64,000 bases of DNA from Ostreococcus lucimarinus (Eukaryota): NCBI GenBank assembly GCA_000092065.1, contig CP000595.1; one strand, given 5' to 3'. The notes under the pieces are model-generated. The model saw only the letters and a list, made by a program, of their open reading frames with translations, did no database searches and was not told the DNA's origin. Position 1 is the stretch's first letter, and each line of letters starts with the position of its first letter. Shown here piece after piece: positions 318 to 29,902 of the stretch. The position numbers and the translations under genes were made by a program.

Positions 318-1451
318 TTAGAAGCACTTACGGTGGACGATAGAAGGTCCGGCTTCGTTGTACTCGCTCTTCGCGATCCACATTTGTTGGAACGTGGACA
401 AAGACGCGAGGATGGACCCGCCGATCCAAACCGAGTACTTGCGCTCGTGCGGGGCGACGACCTTGATTTTCATGGACGACGGCGCCAGAGCGGTGAGCTC
501 CTTGGACACGCGATCGGCGATGCCGGGGAACATGGTAGTACCACCGGAAAGCACGATGTTGGCGTACAAATCGCGCCTGATGTCGACGTCGCAACGCATG
601 ATGGAGTTGTACGTCGTCTCGTGAATGCCCGGGGTTTCCATGCCGATCAAACTGGGCTGGAACAAAACCTCGGGGCAACGGAAACGTTCGTTACCGATCG
701 TGATCATTTGTCCATCGGGAAGCTCGTACGACTTCTCGATCGTGGAGGAGCTTTGGCTCGCCGCCATTTCCTCGTCGAAATCCACCGCGACGTACGCGAG
801 CTTCTCCTTGATGTCGCGAACGATTTCGCGCTCCGCCGACGTCGTGAAAGAGTGTCCGCGCTCGGTCAAGATCTTCACCATGTAATCGGTCAAATCTCTA
901 CCCGCGAGATCGAGGCGAAGGATGGCGTGCGGTAACGCGTAGCCCTCGTAAATCGGCACCGTGTGCGATACGCCGTCGCCGCAGTCGAGCACGATGCCCG
1001 TCGTGCGGCCCGAGGCGTACAGGGACAACACGGCCTGGATGGAGACGTACATGGCGGGCACGTTGAAAGTCTCGAACATGATTTGGCACATCTTCTCGCG
1101 ATTCGCCTTCGGGTTCATCGGGGCCTCGGTCAAAAGCACGGGGTGCTCGGCCGGGTCCACGCGAAGCTCGTTGTAAAACGTGTGATGCCAGATCTTCTCC
1201 ATGTCGTCCCAGTTGGTGACGATCCCGTGTTCGATCGGATACTTGAGCGTCAAGATCCCTCGCTTACTCTGCGCCTCGTCTCCGACGTAGCAATCCTTCT
1301 GCCCCATGCCCACCATGACGCCGTGGTGTCGCGGTCGACCGACGATGGACGGAAACACCGCCTTCGGGGCGTCGTCGCCCGCGAACCCGGCTTTCACCAT
1401 CCCCGACCCGTTATCGCACACCAGCGCGGACACTTCGCCCTCATCCGCCAT
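318..1451 (-). CDS. ACT: Actin
   Basis: 377-aa translation starting [40 protein letters not shown] and ending IVHRKCF matches full-length actin. ATG at 1451 is inside the longer GTG-initiated track ORF 318..1637. No intron. Confidence 0.95.
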
Positions 1452-2213
1452 CTTTCTTTCGTTCCTACGAATTCCGTCCGCGTCCTCGTCGCGCGTCGTC
1501 AGTCCTCGCTCGCGCGTCCTCGTCGCCGATCTCGTCCCGTCGCGTCGCGTCGCGTCGCGTCGCGTCCTCGTCCGCGACGCGACTCGCGCCGTCCTCTCGC
1601 GCGCGTCTCGCGCGCGTCTCGCGGTTCGTTCGTCCACCCCGAGCCGTCGCGCCCGATCGATCGTTCGCGAATCGTTCGCGAATCGAATCGTTCGCGAATC
1701 GGGGTGCGAATCGAATCAATCAATCAATCAACGACTCGCTTTGAAATCGTTCGCGCATCCGTCGCCCGTTCGCGTTTTGTCGTTCGCGTCGCGCCCGCGC
1801 GACCGACGTCGAATCCTCGGGACGTCGCGCGCGCCTCGGTCGCGTCGGTCGCGCGCCTCGCCTCGCCTCGCGCGCACCGTCGTCCGTCGTCCGCCGCGAT
1901 CTCGCGGTCGTCGCGAACGCAATCAATCGCGACGTCGCGGGCGCGTCGCATCGTCGCGGGCGCGCGCGTCGCGGCCCGGCGGTGTGTACCGTATATAAAA
2001 TACGAAACAATCGCGTATACGTTAGATCCCAAAACACCCATATATCGATCAATCACACGACCCAGATGTGCCCCGATCGCGATCGCGCGGCGCGCGGCGC
2101 GTCGCCGACGGGGGGTCTCTCGTCTATATAAAATACGAATCAATCACGTATACATAACACCCCAAAATTGCGAGCTATACCTTATCAGTATGTATTACTT
2201 TCCACGTCCCTAA
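1372..2213. repeat. Actin 5' coding end + 5'UTR/promoter block, copy 1 of a tandem direct duplication (copy 2 at 3551-4410)
   Basis: Identical peptides appear in several frames of both copies ([17 protein letters not shown]..., [23 protein letters not shown]...). Contains (GTCGC)n, (CGAATCGTT)n and (AATC)n microsatellites and two TATATAAAATACGAA[AT]CAATC[GA]CGTATAC elements. Confidence 0.85.
1990..2150. promoter_or_regulatory. Two TATA-box-like AT-rich elements (cgTATATAAAATACGAAaCAATCgCGTATAC and tcTATATAAAATACGAAtCAATCaCGTATAC) upstream of actin
   Basis: Perfect TATAAAA cores in an otherwise 65% GC context. Each is followed by GTATAC and a conserved cgatcaatcacacgacccag motif. Repeated again at about 4160-4200 and 4300-4345. 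Confidence 0.5.
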
Positions 2214-2593
2214 TATGTGCGCGCCGTCGAAGTGCTAATAACTCGCGACGACGCTACAACGCGACGCGCGGCGCGCGCGGCGCCGGGATCTCGCGCTCGT
2301 GATCTTTTACTTTCCGCCGACGCGCCGTTCGCGCGGAACTGCGATTCCGAAGTGTGCCGCTTTCATGCTAGACGTAACTTTTTGATTTTAGATTTTAAGG
2401 ATACAAACGAACTACTCGCGTGATTACACTGGGATACCGCATGGAATAGCGCGTTTGTGACCTAGATACAACTTCGGACAATGGTCTCGAATACAAAGTA
2501 TATTAACACATGAAAACCCATGGGCCACGTCACAAGCACTGGCGTATCAACTTTCGTAGGACATGTGCCAAAGAAGTGTCAATTAATTGCCCA

Positions 2594-3634
2594 TCAGCGC
2601 AGTGGCGTTTTAGAACCAGAAACTTTTTGCACATCTATATACTTGAGGTTTCCTATTTGGATGTTTCCTGCGGACTGCCAATCCCACTCATACAAAAGAA
2701 TGCTAAGTACAGACTGATCGTATCGGTGCACAATATATTCTGTTGAAGGTGGGCCTTTGCGTGGTTTCGTCAGCTTACGACTGGATCCTGGAGGTGCCAT
2801 GCAAGAAAGACAGTTATGCACGCCGCATGCTATCCAAGGCGCGAGAACTGTCTTGTAAACATCCGACTGGAGGTTCGCTATCCAATATGTGGCAGCTATC
2901 TCCGTAAAGTTTTTGAATTTCGTACGGTCGACGTTCAGATAAGCATAAGTGGCGGGGTGTGTGTTCACCCCCATACCCAAAGCACCCAAACGACCGGCGA
3001 ATCCCACACCATCTTCGAGCACGTGAGACACCCACGTTTCCGGGTTTCCAAGGAAACGTGTTGAAGAATCTGCCCACATGAAAGCATCCAGGTCGTCAAA
3101 CACACGTAAAAACATCTGCACTACACGTGGTTTAAAACAGTACGTGTCTAAACGCTCTTGCTCTTCTATCACTAACGTCTGCAACTTGATCTGCGCCTTT
3201 ACTTTTTTCAATTGTAGCTTGTACTTTTGCAATAACCTGAACTCCGCATGCGCCATATCCAACGCGTCAACCTTGTGCATGTAGTATACAGAAACTATCC
3301 CACCATACCGGCTGTCTGCTAGAGAGCGCAGCATATCGAGATTTTCAGCGGCGTGGTTCGATGAGCACGCTGTCACTATTGCAAATCTGACTGTCTTGGC
3401 GCGAGTCCTGTGGCCGAGTCCTAAAATAAATTGAGGCCTGTGAAAAGCCAAATATCCCAACAATAACAGGAGCAGCGTGTTCAAGTGCGTACACGCCCTG
3501 AATTTCCACCGGTCTGCTTGGTCGTCGCCCCTGAATTTCCACCAGTCTGCTTGGTCGTCGCCCGCGAACCCGGCTTTCACCATCCCCGACCCGTTATCGC
3601 ACACCAGCGCGGACAGTTCGCCCTCATCCGCCAT
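2594..3634 (-). CDS. Chimeric ORF: actin codons 1-27 fused in frame to a low-GC type II membrane glycosyltransferase-like protein (GT-A/DxD type, GT34/GT77-like; family uncertain)
   Basis: A 346-aa ORF begins with the actin ATG ([27 protein letters not shown], 1 nt different from the intact actin copy). It diverges into QADWWKF..., has a hydrophobic signal-anchor [14 protein letters not shown], then a conserved-looking domain ([13 protein letters not shown] ... [29 protein letters not shown]). The body sits in a ~45% GC island with flanks at ~65%. Confidence 0.5.
3495..3560. repeat. 33-bp tandem duplication (x2) at the actin-fragment/glycosyltransferase junction
   Basis: cctgaatttccacc[g/a]gtctgcttggtcgtcgcc appears twice in tandem. 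On the minus strand it encodes the repeated [11 protein letters not shown] / [11 protein letters not shown]. Confidence 0.8.
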
Positions 3635-4410
3635 CTTTCTTTCGTTCCTACGAATTCCGTCCGCGTCCTCGTCGCGCGTCGTCAGTCCTCGCTCGCGCGT
3701 CCTCGTCGCCGATCTCGTCCCGTCGCGTCGCGTCGCGTCGCGTCCTCGTCCCCGACGCGACTCGCGCCGCTCTCTCGCGCGCGTCTCGCGCGCGTCTCGC
3801 GGTTCGTTCGTCCACCCCGAGCCGTCGCGCCCGATCGATCGTTCGCGAATCGTTCGCGAGATCGCGAATCGTTCGCGAATCGTTCGCGAATCGAATCAAT
3901 CAATCAACGACTCGCTTTGAAATCGTTCGCGCATCCGTCGCCCGTTCGCGTTTTGTCGTTCGCGTCGCGCCCGCGCGCGCGACGTCGAATCCTCGGGACG
4001 TCGCGCGCGCCTCGGTCGCGTCGCGTCGCGTCGGTCGCCTCGCCTCGCCTCGCGCGCACCGTCGTCCGTCGTCCGCCGCGATCTCGCGGTCGTCGCGAAC
4101 GCAATCAATCGCGACGTCGCGGGCGCGGCGTCGCGGCGTCGCGGGCCGGCGGGGTGTTGTACGATATATAAAATACGAAACAATCGCGTATACATTACAC
4201 CCCAAACTACCGATATGTCGATCAATCACACGACCCAGACCCCCCGCGATCGCCGTTCGCCCCGATCGCGATCGCGCGGCGCCGGACGCGCGCCGCGCGA
4301 TCTCTCGTCTATATAAAATACGAATCAATCACGTATACATTATCCCCCAAACCACCCATATATCGATCAATCACACGACCCAGATGTGCCCCGATCGCGA
4401 TCGCGCGGCG
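3551..4410. repeat. Actin 5' coding end + 5'UTR/promoter block, copy 2
   Basis: Near-identical to 1372-2213, including the microsatellites and TATA-like elements, with small indels and an extra internal copy of the cgatcaatcacacgacccag unit. Confidence 0.85.
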
Positions 4411-4721
4411 CCGGCGCGTCGCCGACGGTTTCCGCGGCGTCGGCGCTTTTTACGCGCCGCGCGACGCGCGCGCGTCGCGAGATCGCGCCGCGGTGGCGTC
4501 GCGCGGCGTTCGAGCGGACGCGGTCACGCGCGCGCGTCGTACACACATACGCGCCGACGCCACAACGCGCACCGCGCACGCACAACGCGCGCATCGTGTC
4601 GCCGTCGACGCGAAAAAGCGTCGTAGGTTTGTCGGATAACGTGACGCGGATCGCGCGCGAGCGCGACGTCGGATAACGAGACGGCTCGCGAGGGGGCGCG
4701 CGTCGCGAGATCGCGCGCGCG

Positions 4722-7127
4722 ATGGCGATGACGCGCGCGATGGCGCACACCGCGTCGCACACCGCGTCGCATACGCGTCCGACGTCGCGAACGGGACGCG
4801 GGACGCGACGCGCGCGCGCGCGCGCGATTCGGAACGACGAGGCGAGCGACGCCGAGGCGGGCGTCGAACGAGGCGAAGACGTCGAGCGGGCGACGCGGGC
4901 GACGCACGCGGTGTACGTGGAGAATCCCGACGGTGGGACGAACACGTGCGTGCGCGTGGTGGGGCCGAATCGCCGGGGGGGGTTGGCGAAAATAATCGCC
5001 GCGTTGACGAATTACGGGTTGGACGTGCAGAGCTCGTTCACGCGGACGACGGCGAACGGGAGCAGCGTGGACGACGTCTTTTACGTCACGTGGGATCCGA
5101 GAGAGGCGGGGAAGTCATTCGATGAATCTCACGCGCGATTGGCGTCGCAGTTGGAGGAAGATCGATTCGAGGATTTGAAAAGGTTCATCGTCGACGCCAT
5201 GACGCCGACGGAGACGCGCGAGCGGTACACGTCGCGCATGCCGAAGATTTACGGCATCGCCGCCGAATCTGAAGTTTTGGCGATGAAGCGACGATTGGAT
5301 GACGCGATCGACCCGTCGAATCAGGAGGAGTCGAAGATCGCGCGCGACCCCGTCTTCATGGCGTCGCAGCTCGAGTTCGTCGCCGCCGAGTTGGCGAGCG
5401 CCACGGCGCGCCTGGTGCAAATCGACCGCGTCTACGCCAAGGTTGAATCTTGCGGGGTGGAGTATTTATGGGAACTCGAAGGCTCCGATGAAGAAGTCGT
5501 GAACGACGAGTGCGTCGTCATCGAAGCCGAGCGCTCCGACGCTCGCGCGATGTTTGAACGCAAGCTCGCCGCCATGGAGGCGGCGCTCGCCGCTCGCGAC
5601 CGAGCGCGAAGAGGGCTCACGACATCATCGGACACCGCTTCGGGTGTCGCGGTGGTGCAACGGACCGATGAAGCGACGTCCACGCTCGCGAAATCACGCC
5701 AGCCTCTGAACGAAAACAACACCACCAAGGCGAAGCTTTCCAAGCTTTCCACGGATATGGCGCCGCAGACGCCGTTCGCCTCGCCCCTCAGTCGCCCTCT
5801 CCCTTCGACACCGTGCGGAAACGGTCGGGAACTCATCCTTCAAGGCTTCAATTGGGAGTCGTGCAACGAAAAAGCGAACAACGATCGATCTTGGTATCAA
5901 CTGTTGAATGAAAAGGTTCCCGAAATCGCCGCCGCGGGCTTCACCTCCGTTTGGATGCCCCCGCCGACGAAATCCGTGAGCAAGCAAGGGTACCTTCCCA
6001 CCGACTTGTACAACTTGAACTCCTTCTACGGCTCAGAAGATGAGCTGAGATCATGCGTCGCTCGCATGCGCGAGTACAACATCACGCCGGTGGCGGATAT
6101 CGTCATCAATCACCGCTGCGCCGAGGCGCAGGACGACGCGGGGCGATGGAACAAGTACACGGGGAAGATTGATTGGGATGCGCGCGCGATCACGTGCGAG
6201 AACCCGCAATTCGGGGGACAGGGATCGCAAAGCACGGGCGAGGACTATCTTCCCGCGCCGAACATCGATCACACTCAACAGTTCGTCCGCAAGGATTTGA
6301 AGGAGTGGCTTTCGTGGATGCGCGACGACGTCGGATTCCGCGGCTGGCGATTTGATTTCGTCAAAGGCTACAGCGGCGTGTTCACTGGAGAGTACGTCGA
6401 AGAAACGCGTCCTTTCTTATCGTTCGGCGAATTTTGGGACGAATGCTCATACCGTGACGGGGTTTTGGAATACAATCAAGACGCGCACCGTCAACGAACG
6501 TGCGACTGGGTGGATTCCACCGGCGGTAACACGGCGGCGTTTGATTTCACCACCAAGGGTATTCTGCAAGAAGCAGTCGCACGCACCGAGTACTGGCGAT
6601 TGATCGACACGAAAGGGCGCCCACCGGGTTTTTGCGGCATGTGGCCCTCTCGCGCCGTTACGTTCATCGAAAATCACGACACGGGCTCGACGCTCCAGCA
6701 CTGGCCGTTTCCGAGGGATAAAATATTGCAAGGATACTGCTACATCCTCACCCATCCGGGAACACCCACGGTGTTCTACGACCACTGGGTCGACCCGAAG
6801 TGGTCGGAGGCCATCGGCGTGATGTTGGATATTCGCAAGCGCACCGGGCTTTCGTCCAACGCCGCCGCCGTGCACATCGAGCGCGCCACCGCCGGTCTTT
6901 ACGCCGCGCACATCGGGCACGCGCAAGAGATGTACACCGAAGGGTTGAGCATGGACGTCGATGTCAAACGTCCGTCGATCTGCATGAAGCTCGGCGTCGA
7001 AGACTGGTCGCCAAACGCGGCTAAAGTTGGAAACTTGTCGTGGAAGTGCACGGCGAGCGGCGATGGATGGGCGATTTGGGAAGACAAGAACCATCTTGAA
7101 GACGAAGAAATCAGCAAAGCGAGGTGA
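4722..7127 (+). CDS. AMY: Alpha-amylase (GH13, plant AMY3-like) with an N-terminal ACT-like regulatory domain
   Basis: Catalytic-domain motifs are present: GFNWES, DIVINHR, GWRFDFVKGY, FIENHDTGS. The N-terminal ~250 aa carry an ACT-like fold (VVGPNRRGGLAKIIAALTNYGLDVQSS). Confidence 0.9.
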   Translation: MAMTRAMAHTASHTASHTRPTSRTGRGTRRARARAIRNDEASDAEAGVERGEDVERATRATHAVYVENPDGGTNTCVRVVGPNRRGGLAKIIAALTNYGLDVQSSFTRTTANGSSVDDVFYVTWDPREAGKSFDESHARLASQLEEDRFEDLKRFIVDAMTPTETRERYTSRMPKIYGIAAESEVLAMKRRLDDAIDPSNQEESKIARDPVFMASQLEFVAAELASATARLVQIDRVYAKVESCGVEYLWELEGSDEEVVNDECVVIEAERSDARAMFERKLAAMEAALAARDRARRGLTTSSDTASGVAVVQRTDEATSTLAKSRQPLNENNTTKAKLSKLSTDMAPQTPFASPLSRPLPSTPCGNGRELILQGFNWESCNEKANNDRSWYQLLNEKVPEIAAAGFTSVWMPPPTKSVSKQGYLPTDLYNLNSFYGSEDELRSCVARMREYNITPVADIVINHRCAEAQDDAGRWNKYTGKIDWDARAITCENPQFGGQGSQSTGEDYLPAPNIDHTQQFVRKDLKEWLSWMRDDVGFRGWRFDFVKGYSGVFTGEYVEETRPFLSFGEFWDECSYRDGVLEYNQDAHRQRTCDWVDSTGGNTAAFDFTTKGILQEAVARTEYWRLIDTKGRPPGFCGMWPSRAVTFIENHDTGSTLQHWPFPRDKILQGYCYILTHPGTPTVFYDHWVDPKWSEAIGVMLDIRKRTGLSSNAAAVHIERATAGLYAAHIGHAQEMYTEGLSMDVDVKRPSICMKLGVEDWSPNAAKVGNLSWKCTASGDGWAIWEDKNHLEDEEISKAR

Positions 7128-12064: not shown

Positions 12065-13648
12065 ATGGGACTGTCTCGAGGGGCGCGCACGGGGTCGTAC
12101 GTCGATCTGTCGAAGGAAGCGACGCGTCCGGGGCAGACGGGGATCTTGGATAACGGAGACGCGGCGTCCGATGGGACGTTCAAGTCGAAGATCATCTGCA
12201 CGCTCGGACCGGTGTCGCGAACGGTGGAGATTTTGGAGGAAATGTTGAGGGCGGGGATGTCGGTCGCGCGGTTCAACTTTTCGCACGGCTCGCACGAGTA
12301 TCACCAGGAGACGTTGGATAATTTGCGCGCGGCGTGCGCGAACACGGGCATTCATTGCGGGGTGCTGCTCGATACCAAGGGGCCGGAGATTCGCACCGGG
12401 ATGCTCGCGTGCGGGGGACCGGTGATGCTCGAAGCGGGGAAGGAGATCGTGCTCACCACGGACTACGAGTTCAAGGGTAGCGCGGAAAAGCTCGCGGTGT
12501 CGTATCCGGACTTGGCCAAGGACGTCAAGCCCGGTTCGAAGATTTTGTGCGCCGACGGTTCCGTCACCTTCACCGTGCTCGAGTGCGACGTCGCCAAGGG
12601 CGAGGTGCGATGCCGCCTCGAAAACAGCGCCAAGCTCGGCGAGCGCAAGAACATGAACTTGCCGGGCGTCAACGTGAACTTGCCCACGATCACCGAGAAG
12701 GATCGCCTCGATTTGATCGAGTGGGGGGTGAAGAACAACGTCGACTTCATCGCCGCCTCGTTCGTTCGCAAGGGAAGCGACGTCGAGTACATTCGCTCCG
12801 TTCTCGGCGACTTCGCGAATAAAGTTTCCATCATCTCCAAGGTTGAGAACATGGAGGGCTTAGATAACTATGACGATATTGTCGAAAAGTCCGACGGCGT
12901 CATGGTCGCTCGCGGCGACTTGGGTATGGAGATTCGCATGGAACAAATATTCTTGGCGCAAAAGCGCATGATCAAGCGGTGCAACTACGCGGGCAAGCCC
13001 GTAGTGACGGCGACGCAAATGCTGGAGTCCATGACGGGTGCCCCGCGCCCGACGCGCGCGGAGGCCACGGACGTGGCCAACGCTATTCTCGACGGTACCG
13101 ACGCCGTGATGCTCTCCGGGGAAACCGCCGCGGGCAACTACGCCATCGACGCGGTCAAGTGCATGGCGTCCATCTGTCGCGAAGCCGAAGCGTACGTGGA
13201 CAACGTGGCGAGCTATCACCAAATCCTCGAGCAACAGCCGATTCCTATGGGCGTCGAAGAGTCTTTGGCTTCGTCCGCCGTTCGTACCGCGCAAAAGGTG
13301 CAAGCCTCCATCATTGTATGCCTCTCTCGCACCGGCACGACTTCTCGTTTGATCGCCAAGTACCGCCCGGATGCGCCAATCTTATCTGTGTGCTACGCTG
13401 AAGAAGCCGATCCGGCGAGTGTTGCGCGCCGCTCGCTCGTCAGCCGTGGCATTATCCCGGTTATCCAACCGCCGGAGTGGGGTCAAGGCAACGCCATCGT
13501 CCCGCAAGAAGTCATGCGTAACGCCATCCTCTACGCCCGTGATACGCTGAAGATCGTCAAGCCTGGCGACGCTGTCGTCGGCGTGCACCGTCTCTTGGGC
13601 GAAGCCATCTTGAAGGTCGTCGTCTGCCCAGAAGGTAACGCCTTCTAA
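12065..13648 (+). CDS. PK: Pyruvate kinase (paralog A)
   Basis: 527 aa with the pyruvate kinase hallmarks [36 protein letters not shown] and [11 protein letters not shown]. Confidence 0.95.
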   Translation: MGLSRGARTGSYVDLSKEATRPGQTGILDNGDAASDGTFKSKIICTLGPVSRTVEILEEMLRAGMSVARFNFSHGSHEYHQETLDNLRAACANTGIHCGVLLDTKGPEIRTGMLACGGPVMLEAGKEIVLTTDYEFKGSAEKLAVSYPDLAKDVKPGSKILCADGSVTFTVLECDVAKGEVRCRLENSAKLGERKNMNLPGVNVNLPTITEKDRLDLIEWGVKNNVDFIAASFVRKGSDVEYIRSVLGDFANKVSIISKVENMEGLDNYDDIVEKSDGVMVARGDLGMEIRMEQIFLAQKRMIKRCNYAGKPVVTATQMLESMTGAPRPTRAEATDVANAILDGTDAVMLSGETAAGNYAIDAVKCMASICREAEAYVDNVASYHQILEQQPIPMGVEESLASSAVRTAQKVQASIIVCLSRTGTTSRLIAKYRPDAPILSVCYAEEADPASVARRSLVSRGIIPVIQPPEWGQGNAIVPQEVMRNAILYARDTLKIVKPGDAVVGVHRLLGEAILKVVVCPEGNAF

Positions 13649-23440: not shown

Positions 23441-24439
23441 TCATTTCGTGGCGTACAGCGCGATCATTCTCGAGAATCGCGCGCGCGATGTCATCGGTTT
23501 GAGGTCGGCGTCGAACAGAATCCATCGTATCACGTCTTCTGGCAAGTCAAGTTCGGGCCAAGCGCGAAGGAAGTGATTCACCGCAGGCGTGAGCTCGCGC
23601 AGCGACACGTACCCGTCACGTTGACGCGACAATGCGATTTGGACAATCAAATCTGTCGTACAGGCGCATATTCGTTGCCAACCGACGACGTATCGCGCCG
23701 ATTCCGGCGCGCTGTGATCTTGCGCGTACTTCAAACACCCCAAACGTCCAGTATAGGCGGCACATGCGCACGTCTCCTCGTTCCAAGGACACCCGTGCTC
23801 GTGCGCGTACTTCAAACACTCCAAATGTCCATGCATGGCGGCAAATGAGCACGTCCACTCGTCCCAAGGACACCCGTGCTCGTGCGCGTACTTCAAACAC
23901 TCCAAATGTCCACTATAGGCGGCACACCGGCACGTCCCCTCGTCCCAAGGACACCCGTGCTCGTGCGCGTACTTCAAACACTCCAACTCTCCATACTTGG
24001 CGGCAAACTGGCACGTGTACGCGTCCCACTCGTGCCCGCACTCGCGCGCCATCCGCACGAGTTCCAAGTCTCCCAGAAACGCCGCGCACGCCGTCACGCA
24101 CGCCCCGTGGCCTCCCCCCAGCGACTCGTCCTCGAGCGCGCGCAGCGCGTCGTCTATCGCACGCGCCGTGAACCAACCGACGCTCCCTCTCGCCGACAGC
24201 AATCGCGGTCGCAACCGCCGTCGCAACCGTCGCCTCGCGCGCGCCATCCTGTCGATATCGACCGCCTCGACGGCGACCTCAACCGTCGCGATCGATCGAC
24301 CGATCGGTCCGTGTTGTAACCCTCGATCGCGACACCCGCGCGCGCGTCGGCGTCCGCCTTTCCGCGCCGCGACGCACGCGCACGATGTCCAAGAGAGGTG
24401 CGCCGACGACGACGCGACGCGCGCGCGCGCGAACGCCAT
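23441..24439 (-). CDS. Ankyrin-repeat protein with four near-identical 33-aa repeats
   Basis: Repeats GHLECLKYAHEHGCPWDE.TC..AA fit the ANK consensus. The likely real start is an internal Met (MARARRRL..., about 24247). Confidence 0.6.
   Translation of the reverse strand: MAFARARVASSSAHLSWTSCACVAARKGGRRRARGCRDRGLQHGPIGRSIATVEVAVEAVDIDRMARARRRLRRRLRPRLLSARGSVGWFTARAIDDALRALEDESLGGGHGACVTACAAFLGDLELVRMARECGHEWDAYTCQFAAKYGELECLKYAHEHGCPWDEGTCRCAAYSGHLECLKYAHEHGCPWDEWTCSFAAMHGHLECLKYAHEHGCPWNEETCACAAYTGRLGCLKYAQDHSAPESARYVVGWQRICACTTDLIVQIALSRQRDGYVSLRELTPAVNHFLRAWPELDLPEDVIRWILFDADLKPMTSRARFSRMIALYATK
23660..24060. repeat. 99-bp tandem repeats (4 copies) encoding the ankyrin repeats
   Basis: Several reading frames on both strands give repeated identical peptides (for example FEVRARARVSLGRVDV...), so the copies are near-identical at the nucleotide level. 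Confidence 0.8.
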
Positions 24440-26760: not shown

Positions 26761-28479
26761 TTATTCGGGAACGATGATGACTTTAAGCACGGCCTCGCCC
26801 ATGATGCGATGGACGCCGACGATGGCGTCGCCCGGTTTCACTAAACCTAAAATGTCGCGGCAGTGTACGATGGCGTTGCGCATGACTTCTTGCGGGTGGC
26901 CGCTCTCGCCGCGCCACGCCGGGTTCTCCAAGAGAGGTACGAGGCCGCGCGTGATGAGCGAGCGGTGCACGACGTCAAGAGCGCGACCTTGGTGATCGGG
27001 CTCTTCGATGCAAACGTTCACGATGCGAGTCTCGGGTCGATACTTGGCGATCATTTGCGCCGTGTGACCGGTGCGAGACAACGTAACGATGAGCGCGGCG
27101 TTCACCTTTTGCGCGGTACGAACGGCGGACGAAGCCAAGGCTTCGGTGATGCCGAGCGGGATCACTTGCTGCTCGAGAATTTGGAAATAGCTCGCGACGT
27201 CATCGACGTACGCTTCGGCTTCGCGACAGATGGACGCCATGCACTTGACCGCGTCTATGGCGTAGTTGCCCGCGGCGGTTTCCCCGGAGAGCATCACGGC
27301 GTCGGTACCGTCGAGAATAGCGTTGGCCACGTCCGTGGCCTCCGCGCGCGTCGGGCGCGGGGCACCCGTCATGGATTCCAACATTTGCGTCGCCGTCACG
27401 ACGGGCTTACCCGCCAAGTTGCACCGCTTGATCATGCGCTTTTGCGCCAAGAATATTTGTTCCATGCGAATCTCCATACCCAAGTCGCCGCGAGCGACCA
27501 TGACGCCGTCGGACTTTTCGACGATGTCGTTAAAGTTATCTAAGCCCTCCATGTTCTCAACCTTGGAGATGATGGAAACTTTATTCGCGAAGTCGCCGAG
27601 AACGGAGCGAATGTACTCGACGTCGCTTCCCTTGCGAACGAACGAGGCGGCGATGAAGTCGACGTTGTTCTTCACCCCCCACTCGATCAAATCGTGGCGA
27701 TCCTTCTCGGTGATCGTGGGCAAGTTCACGTTGACGCCCGGCAAGTTCATGTTCTTGCGCTCGCCGAGCTTGGCGCTGTTTTCGAGGCGGCATCGCACCT
27801 CGCCCTTGGCGACGTCGCACTCGAGCACGGTGAAGGTGACGGAACCGTCGGCGCACAAAATCTTCGAACCGGGCTTGACGTCCTTGGCCAAGTCCGGATA
27901 CGACACCGCGAGCTTTTCCGCGCTACCCTTGAACTCGTAGTCCGTGGTGAGCACGATCTCCTTCCCCGCTTCGAGCATCACCGGTCCCCCGCACGCGAGC
28001 ATCCCGGTGCGAATCTCCGGCCCCTTGGTATCGAGCAGCACCCCGCAATCGACGCCCGTGTTCGCGCACGCCGCGCGCAAATTATCCAACGTCTCCTGGT
28101 GATACTCGTGCGAGCCGTGCGAAAAGTTGAACCGCGCGACCGACATCCCCGCCCTCAACATTTCCTCCAAAATCTCCACCGTTCGCGACACCGGTCCGAG
28201 CGTGCAGATGATCTTCGACTTGAACCCAATCCTCTGCGAGTCTTTCGCCCGAAACGCCGCCTCGCTGTCGTTAAACGCATAGTCCTCGCTCGCCTCCCCC
28301 CCGTTCTCCAGCACGTGCGCCGCGCGCCAATCCCCGACCGATCCTTTGCTCGCCAGCGCGCTCAGCGCTCGCTGGCTCGACAGCCCCGCCAAGGCCACCG
28401 TCCGCCGTCGTTTCTCGTCCCCTCGCGCGTCATCGTGCACGATGGGATCCACGCTCGAGTTTCGCGCGTTCAGTCCCAT
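26761..28479 (-). CDS. PK: Pyruvate kinase (paralog B)
   Basis: ATG at 28479 ([11 protein letters not shown]...) inside a longer track ORF. Central ~330 aa are nearly identical to paralog A. N-terminal extension and C-terminal domain are diverged (about 60% identical). Confidence 0.9.
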
Positions 28480-28744
28480 CTCGATCGCCCTCTCGCGCGT
28501 CCCGTCGCCCTCGCCGCGCCGACGTTCGATTCCAAATTCCGAATGCGCCACCGATCGATCCGGCGGCGGCGAACGATCGCGCGTCTCTCGCGCGTCTCTC
28601 GCCTCGTCTCGCCCCCGCGCGCGCTCGGTTCGCTCGATCGACGCCTCGCGCGCGTTCGCTCGCGTCCGGGCTCGCGCGCCGCGGTCGCGCGCGTCGTCGT
28701 GTCGCGTCTGTGCGCGAACACACCCGGGATCGCCGCGTCGGCGC

Positions 28745-28870
28745 GCGCGATCGATCGCGCGCGCGCGCGACGCCGCGATCGTCGCGCGAGGTTCGACGCG
28801 CGCGCGTCGACCCTCGACCGTCGATCGATCGATCGCTCGAGCGATCGATCGATCGATCGCGCGCGCGCGC
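28745..28870. promoter_or_regulatory. CGATCG-repeat palindrome in the divergent PK-B/DapB intergenic region
   Basis: gtcgatcgatcgatcgCTCGAGcgatcgatcgatcgatcgc is a near-perfect inverted repeat centred on CTCGAG, between the divergent starts at 28479 (-) and 28913 (+). Confidence 0.4.
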
Positions 28871-28912
28871 GGCGCCGCACACGACGACGGGCGACGCGCG
28901 CGCGCGCGCGCG

Positions 28913-29902
28913 ATGCGCGGCGCGGCGCTCGAGCGCGCGTCCGCGGCGCGCGGCGCGGGACGACGCGCGATCGCGCGCGCGCGGGGCGACGGCGGCGCGA
29001 TGCGCGCGCGCGGGCGCGCGATCGTCGCGACGCGCGCGAGCGCGGACGGCGCGACGACGCGCGTGATGGTGAACGGGGTGAGCGGAAAGATGGGACACGC
29101 GACGGCGTGCGGCGTGGTCAAGCGCGCGGGGTTCGAGCTGGTGCCGTACGCGCTGACGAAGCGGGCGACGGCGGCGACGACGGATGTGCTGGGGACGGAG
29201 GTGCGAGGCGTGGACGTCGGCGAGGAGGACGCGGGAGAGACGCTGGAACGCGCGAAACGGGAGTATCCGGGGTTCATCGTGGTGGATTACACGCAACCGG
29301 ACAGCGTGAACTCGAACGCGGCGCTGTACGTGAAGCACGGGGTGCCGTTCGTGATGGGGACGACGGGGGGTGACCGCGAACGCATGCTCCGAGAGGTGAA
29401 GGAGAGCGGAAATTACGCCGTGATCGCGCCGCAGATGGGGAAGCAGGTGGTGGCGTTTCAAGCGGCGATGAAATTGATGGCCGAACAGTTTCCCGGCGCG
29501 TTCGAGGGGTACACGCTGACGGTGACGGAATCGCACCAGAGTAGTAAAAAGGATACGAGCGGCACGGCGAAAGCCATCGTGGCGTCGTTCAACGATCTCG
29601 GGTGTGGGTTCGATTTGAACGATATCGAGCTCGTGCGCGACGTGGAGAGCCAAACGGGGAAGATGGGCGTGCCCGAAGAACACTTGTTGGGGCACGCGTT
29701 TCACACCTATCGCCTGACGAGCGCGGACGGCACGGTTTCGTTTGAGTTTCAGCACAACGTGTGCGGACGAAGCATTTACGCCGAAGGTACGGTCGACGCG
29801 GTGGGGTTCTTAAAGCGCAAGGTGGACGCGAAGGATCCAAAAACGTTGTACGACATGATCGACGTCTTGAAAGAGGGCGCTATGGGGGAGTGGGTCAAGT
29901 GA
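28913..29902 (+). CDS. DAPB: 4-hydroxy-tetrahydrodipicolinate reductase (DapB, plant/plastid type)
   Basis: VNGVSGKMGHATACGVVKRAGFELVPYALT... plus a conserved C-terminal domain. Preceded by an Arg/Ala-rich transit-like region. Start at 28913 or 29000. Confidence 0.75.
   Translation: MRGAALERASAARGAGRRAIARARGDGGAMRARGRAIVATRASADGATTRVMVNGVSGKMGHATACGVVKRAGFELVPYALTKRATAATTDVLGTEVRGVDVGEEDAGETLERAKREYPGFIVVDYTQPDSVNSNAALYVKHGVPFVMGTTGGDRERMLREVKESGNYAVIAPQMGKQVVAFQAAMKLMAEQFPGAFEGYTLTVTESHQSSKKDTSGTAKAIVASFNDLGCGFDLNDIELVRDVESQTGKMGVPEEHLLGHAFHTYRLTSADGTVSFEFQHNVCGRSIYAEGTVDAVGFLKRKVDAKDPKTLYDMIDVLKEGAMGEWVK

Follow-up and report, generated by a model that had tools for sequence, protein, structure and literature searches.

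A low-GC, glycosyltransferase-like gene joined in frame to a second copy of the actin promoter and N-terminus beside actin in Ostreococcus lucimarinus

The stretch of O. lucimarinus DNA analysed in this study (64 kb, referred to as "the window") carries a complete actin gene on its minus strand (318-1451, 377 aa), which was recognised in the list of open reading frames (ORFs) and by Pfam (Actin, E 2.6e-148) and is an exact match to XP_001421686 of O. lucimarinus CCE9901. This gene is the parent of a duplicated 5' end. Direct repeats (families D1, D4, D5 and D7) and pairwise alignment define two minus-strand copies of a block made up of actin codons 1-27, the 5'UTR and the upstream promoter region: copy 1 at 1371-2167 and copy 2 at 3554-4352. 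The copies are spaced 2183 bp apart, and the duplicated length is about 0.7-0.8 kb. Within the block, the 191-nt repeat 1371-1561/3554-3744 is 99% identical, and the repeat extends through the 5'UTR and promoter to about 2167 and 4352 at 97-98% identity, microsatellite indels excluded. The second set of actin codons 1-27 (3554-3634) shows one difference from the first (1371-1451), codon 7 being CTG instead of GTG (V7L). Two TATA-containing repeat units of about 133 bp (TCTATATAAAATACGAA..., repeat families D2 and D3) occupy the distal end of copy 1 (1964-2167), and more such units are present in copy 2 at 4137-4411.

Copy 1 is still joined to the full actin gene. Copy 2 now heads a chimeric ORF, and its other side still faces an alpha-amylase gene (4722-7127, plus strand; Pfam Alpha-amylase and Alpha-amyl_C2), which is the right-hand neighbour in metagenome contigs as well; the amylase upstream region (4353-4721 together with copy 2) was left undisturbed by the duplication. 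When compared across strains, the promoter copies fail to group by their location, a pattern that either gene conversion or the mixing of repeats by assemblers would explain.

An island of about 1.2-1.4 kb with a GC content of about 47% is located immediately upstream of actin. GC is 46.8% at 2330-3495 (about 47% when the island is bounded at 2338-3495), as compared to 62.7% for the whole window. In 1-kb intervals across the 64 kb, GC averages 62.8% (SD 5.2%); the sole intervals below 52% are those overlapping the island, with a minimum of 47.4% at 2501. An earlier note on this DNA had reported a fall from about 65% to about 45% GC at about 2330-3480, and this proves to be the single dip in the 64 kb. 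The note had also proposed a comparison of codon usage, and here, too, the insert is distinguishable from host genes: GC3 is 0.52 in the non-actin part of the ORF versus 0.67-0.85 in seven host genes. It is comparable to that of the homologue genes described below (0.45-0.57).

The low-GC 3' flank of the ORF (2338-2593, minus strand), presumed to be the 3'UTR of the foreign gene, has 0 segregating sites over its 256 nt in 22 copies. At the left junction, alignment revealed a linker of 59% GC (2168-2337), and most metagenome contigs carry a different, 141-bp linker at this position. Searching both linkers against all loci with blastn confined the former to one structural haplotype, consisting of the reference strain and contigs L006, L008 and L009. 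The left end of the island thus occurs as two structural haplotypes, a point that the earlier note did not mention. Of the hallmarks of mobile elements, neither terminal inverted repeats nor tRNA genes or members of Rfam families were found around the island. An organellar insert was rejected by inference, since no organelle genome is known to us to encode such a glycosyltransferase.

The chimeric ORF encodes 346 aa from ATG to stop (2594-3634, minus strand) and was identified from the ORF list and from a cluster of 104 metagenome proteins, which are likewise 346 aa long and 99% identical. It consists of actin residues 1-27, a 22-residue stretch (28-49), a hydrophobic anchor and a GT-A-like domain. 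The frame is uninterrupted across the junction of two unrelated sequences, and this is reproduced in independent assemblies; the chance that 319 non-actin codons would stay open at 47% GC is about 5e-8. The only Met upstream of the hydrophobic anchor is the actin-derived one. The foreign frame has lost its own start and continues into the duplicated actin ATG. The earlier description of this arrangement (an actin ATG plus 27 codons at 3634-3554 with a 1-nt difference, a second actin 5'UTR/promoter block, and a minus-strand frame running into this ATG without a stop) was accurate on all of these points, and the data bear out an in-frame fusion of a foreign-composition gene with a second copy of the actin promoter and N-terminus. 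An additional feature, absent from that description, is a 33-bp in-frame tandem duplication (3496-3528 and 3529-3561, minus strand; repeat family D10) spanning the actin/foreign junction, within which residues 28-46 of the chimera fall. As its unit includes both the last three actin codons and foreign sequence, the duplication postdates the fusion. The reference annotation of O. lucimarinus contains no entry for the exact 346-aa protein; the chimera appears to be missing from it. Our literature search found no paper on the locus or on an actin fusion in Ostreococcus.

Residues 47-64 (3443-3496, minus strand) are presumed to form a type II signal anchor. The hydropathy maximum at residues 50-64 is the only strong peak in the first 115 or so residues scanned; its core is short (12-13 residues), is flanked by R46 and H65-R66, and aligns with the N-terminal anchors of homologues P0002-P0005. 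Hydropathy and homologue alignment therefore agree with the type II membrane layout proposed earlier, with a single predicted anchor, basic flanks and the domain C-terminal to the anchor. The putative catalytic domain (residues ~82-346; 2597-3391, minus strand) belongs to the DUF1647 superfamily and shows the Rossmann-like alpha/beta/alpha organisation of a GT-A fold. Family motifs include W-A-D189-S-S191, C..C..CMAPPGS and H303-R-Y-D-Q-S-V-L, and every family-invariant residue is kept in the chimera. The protein had previously been described as DxD-type glycosyltransferase-like. The GT-A fold stands, but the DxD then pointed to (FDDLDAF) is not conserved in homologues; where a DxD would be expected, the invariant motif reads W-x-D-[ST]-S (D189 and S191 of the chimera). 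Some GT-A families have no DxD, so that this motif is compatible with activity as well as with its lack.

Pfam found no match in the chimeric protein besides the actin piece, and no GT family in its clade. GT34, GT77 and PF03407, which had been suggested for it, are thus not supported, although one distant relative has a sub-threshold GT34 match (18.4 bits). For PF07801 (DUF1647; gathering threshold 25.7 bits), the chimeric protein gave 0 matches at E<=10, and the best of 8 clade members reached E 0.048. A profile search, however, recovered 1411 relatives, the more distant of which score above the PF07801 threshold. When the chimera-clade alignment was compared by hhalign with 16 proteins that themselves all match PF07801, the probability was 99.95% (E 2e-37, 240 columns). 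Judged by these profile comparisons, the body of the chimera is a divergent relative of DUF1647/PF07801. Its domain is regarded as a putative glycosyltransferase of GT-A fold. No chain was matched when the family profile was searched against PDB sequences.

Repeats of 0.7-0.8 kb are hard to assemble, and many metagenome contigs do break there, leaving contigs of about 2.1 kb; in one scaffold (L036), promoter copy 2 is interrupted by 100 Ns, and the apparent 329-aa variant there is no real allele but a product of this gap. One could therefore suspect the duplicated block and the fusion to be an assembly artefact of the reference genome, and the earlier note had itself named mis-assembly at the duplicated block as a concern. 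However, the same fusion junction, together with the 33-bp duplication, occurs in 23 metagenome contigs and is identical in them save for one mismatch (in L037). The order amylase, chimera, actin is seen in L005 (a contig of 92.6 kb), L018 and L019, which come from different projects and assemblers (JGI and ENA contigs) and span both copies with the island between them. Chimera and actin are linked in L020, L023, L024, L028 and L037, and amylase and chimera in L021 and L022. The arrangement is present in all wild O. lucimarinus-type contigs sampled. As the junction recurs in more than 20 independent metagenome contigs, it is not a mis-assembly, and the artefact explanation is effectively refuted.

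The earlier note left two sources open for the gene, relocation or horizontal acquisition. The composition of the island deviates from that of the host and matches that of contigs carrying homologues (45-48% GC). Among 5.8 billion proteins searched, the best relatives outside the 90% cluster are 43-48% identical and are encoded on those contigs; there was no protein of 48-90% identity, none came from an NCBI-annotated genome, and no relative was found among annotated Mamiellophyceae proteins. A scan of JGI metagenomes yielded the O. lucimarinus copy itself, many relatives of 22-32% identity and one 51% match over 56 residues only. In a neighbour-joining tree (drawn without support values), the chimera groups with P0002, P0003 and P0004, from contigs of about 47% GC, and this close clade is a separate marine-protist subfamily. 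On L001, the neighbours of the close homologue are NeuB and STELLO genes; on L003, the neighbour is a CMAH-like gene (Rieske plus metallo-beta-lactamase). The NeuB on one close homologue's contig is 76-79% identical to MMETSP transcripts, and a distant homologue (P0125, 32% identity) adjoins genes for an HSF factor and tRNase Z, findings that point to eukaryotic hosts for those homologue contigs. The ancestral empty site was not seen: the contigs carrying a sister-Ostreococcus actin, which differs by 7 aa, break off 145-417 bp upstream of that gene; in a 41% GC Mamiellales-like genome, the gene order differs. A bacterial origin was rejected, GTDB relatives being just 23-24% identical (Vicinamibacteria and Chryseobacterium MAGs).

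Relocation from the low-GC outlier chromosome of O. lucimarinus itself (the chromosome 2 region or chromosome 18) has in its favour that Mamiellales outlier chromosomes are low in GC and enriched in lineage-specific and HGT-like genes (PMC3491373); the earlier note describes them as rich in glycosyltransferases and linked to virus resistance. The search covered predicted proteins, so that unannotated paralogues are conceivable. Yet nothing above 48% identity lies outside the chimera's own cluster, the chimera was recovered 104 times from wild populations, so that a paralogue in the same genome should also have been called, and no match has an NCBI source even though the O. lucimarinus proteins that we looked up are in the collection. 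We consider relocation very unlikely. Integration of prasinovirus or other giant-virus DNA beside actin is, in our opinion, highly improbable. The GC range of Ostreococcus viruses includes the roughly 47% of the island, GT-A enzymes are common in giant viruses, and distant superfamily members do occur in giant-virus MAGs; but IMG/VR offers nothing closer than 23-28% identity, from giant-virus MAGs of 27-41% GC, and the best BFVD match by fold is an EhV-86 protein of 18% identity, with no prasinovirus protein in the top 50. The prasinovirus source that had been proposed for checking thus finds no backing. Moreover, two or more of the homologue contigs have a cellular, eukaryotic appearance (HSF, tRNase Z, intergenic gaps of 50-800 bp), although the one with HSF and tRNase Z carries a distant (32%) relative. 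We prefer horizontal acquisition to both of these origins.

Whether the chimeric product has a selected function is a separate question. Of the 21 full-length metagenome copies, which come from several oceans and projects, 20 have an intact ORF; all family-invariant residues are retained, and the 33-bp duplication is fixed yet in frame. However, about 10 nonsynonymous changes and 1 synonymous change were observed in the chimera and 0 changes in the 256 nt of the 3'UTR, so that silent sites, taken as the synonymous ones together with the 3'UTR, vary less than nonsynonymous sites (p about 0.04, with few segregating sites). There are three alleles at codons 7 and 223, and candidate alleles also at codons 218, 292, 311 and 330. 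Residue 223, a well-conserved Glu (GENTH motif), is V in the reference strain and A in other haplotypes. This pattern is the opposite of what purifying selection predicts, although the data are too sparse to show selection. It would be expected if the chimera were a neutral or decaying passenger, left behind by a recent chance insertion and duplication, with an ORF that is open merely through youth; such a passenger may still be transcribed from its copy of the actin promoter. A 1-bp frameshift in one contig (L041), the missing annotation and the unameliorated GC3, which indicates a young insertion, point in the same direction. Nevertheless, in the neighbouring amylase gene 12 of 13 variable sites are likewise in amino-acid-changing codons; as the population is nearly clonal, the ratio has little power, and the lone frameshift could be an assembly error. 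A mere passenger is therefore a possibility to be taken seriously, but we think it the less probable outcome.

We conclude, with a probability of roughly 0.62, that the locus holds a young, lineage-specific chimeric gene of O. lucimarinus, namely a horizontally acquired putative glycosyltransferase predicted to be driven by an actin promoter. Most likely, the DNA would have come by horizontal transfer from a marine eukaryote of about 47% GC or from an unknown vector. Its insertion might have occurred by staggered-break or template-switch repair that duplicated the target, so that both actin and amylase kept the complete upstream region that they had shared. The 33-bp in-frame duplication later lengthened the linker. 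Going by the sequence, transcription would start from the duplicated actin promoter and translation from the actin ATG. The predicted product would sit in Golgi/ER membranes, with a cytosolic tail of 46 residues (27 of them actin-derived), a short anchor and, on the lumenal side, the glycosyltransferase-like domain. The sialic-acid-type genes beside its nearest homologues hint at the synthesis of acidic-sugar glycans.

A further-reaching version of this history, which we regard as unlikely, is that the gene has been domesticated through the actin promoter and start, is strongly expressed, remodels surface or scale-like glycans (possibly of sialic-acid type), and is under diversifying selection by prasinoviruses; any part of the chimera in virus resistance is speculative. 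Such selection, if real, would account for the surplus of amino-acid changes, among them the three alleles at codons 7 and 223, on a haplotype that is invariant elsewhere. If this reading were true, the locus would provide a natural, datable example of a eukaryote activating a horizontally acquired gene, and would mark a new locus of virus-host interaction away from the outlier chromosomes; on sequence alone, it is a well-documented structural curiosity. The activation of horizontally acquired genes in eukaryotes is rarely caught in the act, and all of its stages seem to have been preserved here: a base composition like that of the donor, duplication of the target with the upstream regions of both neighbours spared, a lost native start, the fusion, and a later duplication at the junction. 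The fusion partner, actin, is one of the strongest housekeeping genes of the cell. Furthermore, DUF1647 is a large glycosyltransferase-like superfamily that has never been characterised, and the chimera places a member of it in a culturable model picoalga.

Among known systems, the closest in sequence is PF07801 (DUF1647), whose members are uncharacterised, predicted Golgi type II proteins found in glycosylation-gene clusters of C. elegans (PMC7614267). The chimera has in common with them the motifs VTA-S-NH-E and W-x-D-x-S-x-RF, the Cys cluster and CHRxDQSVL, as well as an N-terminal anchor followed by a domain of about 270 residues. It differs in that the chimeric protein and its close clade score below the family threshold, and in that the actin-derived N-terminus is found in the chimera alone. 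With the GT-A enzymes of known structure that we compared (BoGT6a, 4cj8; Kre2p/Mnt1p, 1s4n; Skp1 alpha-GalT, 6mw8; glycogenin, 1zcu/3u2t), it shares an acidic residue after beta-strand 4, the usual place of the DxD; however, identity is 8-13%, and the chimera family has D-S-S or D-T-S rather than DxD and falls outside the assigned CAZy families.

With respect to gene birth, an X-linked chimera expressed in Drosophila testes reportedly arose as a new gene by partial duplication of a parental promoter and 5' exon. As in Drosophila-type chimeric genes, a parental regulatory region and first codons were duplicated and fused in frame in Ostreococcus, yielding a young, lineage-specific gene. In contrast, what was recruited here is no host duplicate or retrocopy but a gene of foreign composition, the parent is actin, and the event looks like an insertion with a target duplication of about 0.8 kb. 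A study of O. tauri is said to describe a "viral immunity chromosome". Like the gene clusters of the Mamiellales outlier chromosomes, which are low in GC and enriched in lineage-specific and HGT-like genes (PMC3491373), the chimera is low in GC, specific to its lineage and glycosyltransferase-like, and it belongs to the genome of an Ostreococcus; unlike them, it is a single gene placed among housekeeping genes on a normal chromosome of 63% GC.

Within the window, the complete actin gene (318-1451, minus strand; ORF list and Pfam) is followed on its right by a block that comprises actin codons 1-27, the 5'UTR and the upstream region (copy 1, 1371-2167). Repeat analysis and pairwise alignment placed a second copy of this block at 3554-4352 (copy 2), giving a start-to-start spacing of 2183 bp. 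The two copies are separated by a 170-bp linker (2168-2337) followed by a low-GC island (2338-3495), and an alpha-amylase gene (4722-7127, plus strand; Pfam) lies beyond copy 2. The initial 191 nt of the two copies are 99% identical, the sole difference being a change of codon 7 from GTG to CTG, and 110 nt of 5'UTR are identical between them; the remainder is 97-98% identical, microsatellite indels aside. Actin (XP_001421686), pyruvate kinase (XP_001421558) and a further window protein (XP_001421565) each had an exact match in the protein collection, all three from O. lucimarinus CCE9901; a fourth window protein was matched exactly as well. A TATA-like motif (TCTATATAAAATACGAAnCAATCnCGTATAC) is present in each 133-145-bp repeat unit of the actin and amylase upstream blocks (1964-2167 and 4137-4411); copy 1 has two such units and copy 2 has two or three. 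Read on the plus strand, the copy-1 TATA units face the island's 3' end, which makes antisense transcription of the island possible.

From the start codon of copy 2, a 346-aa ORF (2594-3634, minus strand; ORF list) runs into the island. Its product consists of 27 actin residues, a 19-residue stretch, an 18-residue hydrophobic segment and then HRPQ. A 33-bp tandem duplication (3496-3528 and 3529-3561; repeat analysis) is located at the junction; as its unit combines the final three codons of the actin part (GDD) with eight codons of foreign origin, it postdates the fusion, and it keeps the frame. Alignment with homologues of the foreign part showed that their native N-terminus (e.g. MSIRIRPFF) is missing from the chimera. 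The actin ATG is the only Met codon upstream of the hydrophobic segment, and a membrane-anchored product therefore needs the actin start. In random sequence of 47% GC, 319 foreign codons would stay open with a probability of about 5e-8. The exact chimera protein was absent from the gene collection searched, and our literature search found no paper describing the actin/chimera locus.

Repeats of this kind are hard to assemble, and an assembly artefact was considered. The chimera is matched at about 99% by a 104-protein cluster (90% identity) from JGI, ENA and Logan metagenomes, and 12 of the 15 cluster members listed have a length of 346 aa. The gene order amylase, chimera, actin was also found in three metagenome contigs from different projects and assemblers (L005, 92.6 kb; L018; L019), the chimera with actin on L020, L023, L024, L028 and L037, and amylase with the chimera on L021 and L022. 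Many contigs are only about 2.1 kb long since assemblers break at repeats. All 23 contigs that reach the junction carry it with the 33-bp duplication (22 identical, L037 with one mismatch). These results rule out mis-assembly, and both the arrangement and the uninterrupted in-frame fusion to a duplicated actin start, as described in the earlier note, hold in independent contigs. A 329-aa variant on L036 was rejected, as it reflects a scaffold gap of 100 N.

The foreign composition noticed earlier was substantiated by windowed GC and GC3. The island has 46.8% GC compared to 62.7% for the window, and 1-kb windows over the 64 kb (mean 62.8%, SD 5.2%) fell below 52% only where they overlapped the island. 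Outside its actin part, the ORF has a GC3 of 0.52, compared to 0.67-0.85 in seven host genes; the 27 actin-derived codons have a host-like value of 0.85.

Pfam recognized only the actin fragment in the chimera and its close clade, with no match to the GT34, GT77 or PF03407 families that had been proposed, and the DDLD previously read as a DxD motif is not conserved in the homologues. The glycosyltransferase-like fold itself stood. Searching 1.84 billion representatives with a profile yielded 1411 relatives, the more distant of which scored above threshold on PF07801/DUF1647, and hhalign of the close clade against 16 PF07801-positive proteins gave a probability of 99.95% (E 2e-37). The window copy keeps the conserved W-x-D-[ST]-S, the Cys cluster/CMxPxGS and HRxDQSxL. 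In GT-A enzymes, DxD usually follows beta-strand 4, and the D-S-S of this family is predicted to occupy that position. PDB chains gave no sequence-level match to the family. The chimera body is a divergent DUF1647-superfamily protein and a putative glycosyltransferase of the GT-A fold. We know of no activity for DUF1647. C. elegans DUF1647 genes sit within putative glycosylation gene clusters (PMC7614267).

Where the foreign part came from was examined among 5.8 billion proteins, in which the best matches outside the chimera's own cluster were 43-48% identical and none derived from an NCBI-annotated genome. In a simple NJ tree, the window protein groups with the closest homologues (P0002-P0004), whose contigs have 45-48% GC and so resemble the island. 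The contig L001 and that of P0125, a more distant homologue (32% identity), look like compact eukaryotic DNA: the NeuB gene adjoining the homologue on L001 is 76-79% identical to MMETSP transcripts, and P0125 has an HSF-type factor and a tRNase Z as neighbours. Of two among the closest homologues, one is accompanied by NeuB and a STELLO glycosyltransferase (L001 411-1427 and 7471-8832), and the other by a Rieske plus metallo-beta-lactamase protein (L003 3456-5285), an architecture that we take to be CMAH-like. These sialic-acid-type neighbours hint that the subfamily may act in the synthesis of such glycans. The earlier note had offered relocation from one of the alga's own outlier chromosomes, or horizontal acquisition. 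Relocation appears unlikely, as wild O. lucimarinus-type DNA yielded 104 calls of the chimera and no paralogue among the 5.8 billion proteins. The proposed check against viral proteins brought up nothing closer than relatives of 23-28% identity in giant-virus MAGs and a best fold match of 18% identity (an EhV-86 protein), and the virus link suggested in the earlier note found no support; relatives in bacterial MAGs were 23-24% identical. Superfamily members at 22-30% identity also occur in bacterial MAGs (Vicinamibacteria, Chryseobacterium; L047-L049) and in many of the JGI contigs L051-L129, so DUF1647-like proteins extend beyond eukaryotes and giant viruses. The best reading is horizontal acquisition from a marine eukaryote of about 47% GC, or via a vector, and the low GC3 of the foreign part argues that it was recent.

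Six haplotypes were present among 21 full-length metagenome copies plus the reference. Counting cluster-protein alleles, there were about 10 nonsynonymous changes and 1 synonymous change (variable codons: 7 L/V/M, 39 Q/R, 218 A/R, 223 E/V/A, 292 R/G, 311 S/G, 330 L/P), a comparison of low power because 12 of 13 variable sites in the neighbouring amylase also fall in amino-acid-changing codons. Glu223 of the GENTH motif is V in the reference strain and E in most wild copies. The 256-nt 3'UTR showed zero variation across these copies; silent sites were marginally depleted (p ~0.04; CDS alone, p = 0.26). No sign of purifying selection was seen in these copies and alleles, and the data fit relaxed constraint and diversifying selection alike. 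A 1-bp insertion near position 1258 of L041 (JGI), changing GTGC-TTTGG to GTGCGTTTGG, frameshifts the glycosyltransferase-like domain and reflects either an error in assembling this contig or a rare null allele. In metagenome copies, V7L (GTG/CTG) occurs in both true actin (1431-1433) and the chimera (3614-3616), the latter also having an ATG (Met) allele, and promoter copies across strains do not sort by position, which suggests gene conversion or repeats that assemblers mixed. The left junction of the island exists as two structural haplotypes (window 2055-2337; L005 11297-11437 and equivalents): the reference-type 170-bp linker with an extra TATA unit, also found in L006, L008 and L009, and a 141-bp linker of 52% GC, found in 20 of the contigs examined. 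The same island and fusion junction in both imply a single origin with subsequent remodelling of this junction.

Other features were observed. A 1194-nt inverted repeat (95% identity) spans 12178-13371 and 27032-28225, and a second pyruvate-kinase copy with an N-terminal extension of about 350 residues lies within an 838-aa ORF (26761-29277, minus strand), possibly a further case of gene duplication or extension in the region. Four 81-bp tandem units (84-85% identical, 23714-24037) lie within an ankyrin-repeat ORF (23441-24439, minus strand). Five contigs of about 41% GC (L031-L035), which derive either from a low-GC part of a chromosome or from a different Mamiellales-like genome, encode an actin sharing 91% identity with the O. 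lucimarinus one and show partial synteny (cytochrome b561, CMAS-type methyltransferase, actin, FeThRed_B, ribosomal L12, amylase, LHC), with amylase downstream of actin, whereas it is upstream in O. lucimarinus.

A direct duplication of the target flanks the foreign DNA on both sides, as is seen when an insertion is repaired through template switching or over breaks that are staggered. Such repair would have duplicated the target and placed the foreign ORF behind an extra copy of the actin promoter, 5'UTR and ATG, and a full upstream block is kept both by actin (copy 1) and by amylase (copy 2 plus 4353-4721). Actin must be expressed from copy 1, and as copy 2 is nearly identical, including the 5'UTR, transcription of the chimera from copy 2 is plausible. 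The locus appears to be a clean natural case of an imported gene capturing a promoter and start codon. It would belong to the known chimeric new genes in which the promoter and 5' exon of a parental gene have been recruited, of which a Drosophila X-linked, testes-expressed chimera is reportedly an example, and within this class it is unusual in that a foreign gene was recruited as the body and actin is the parent.
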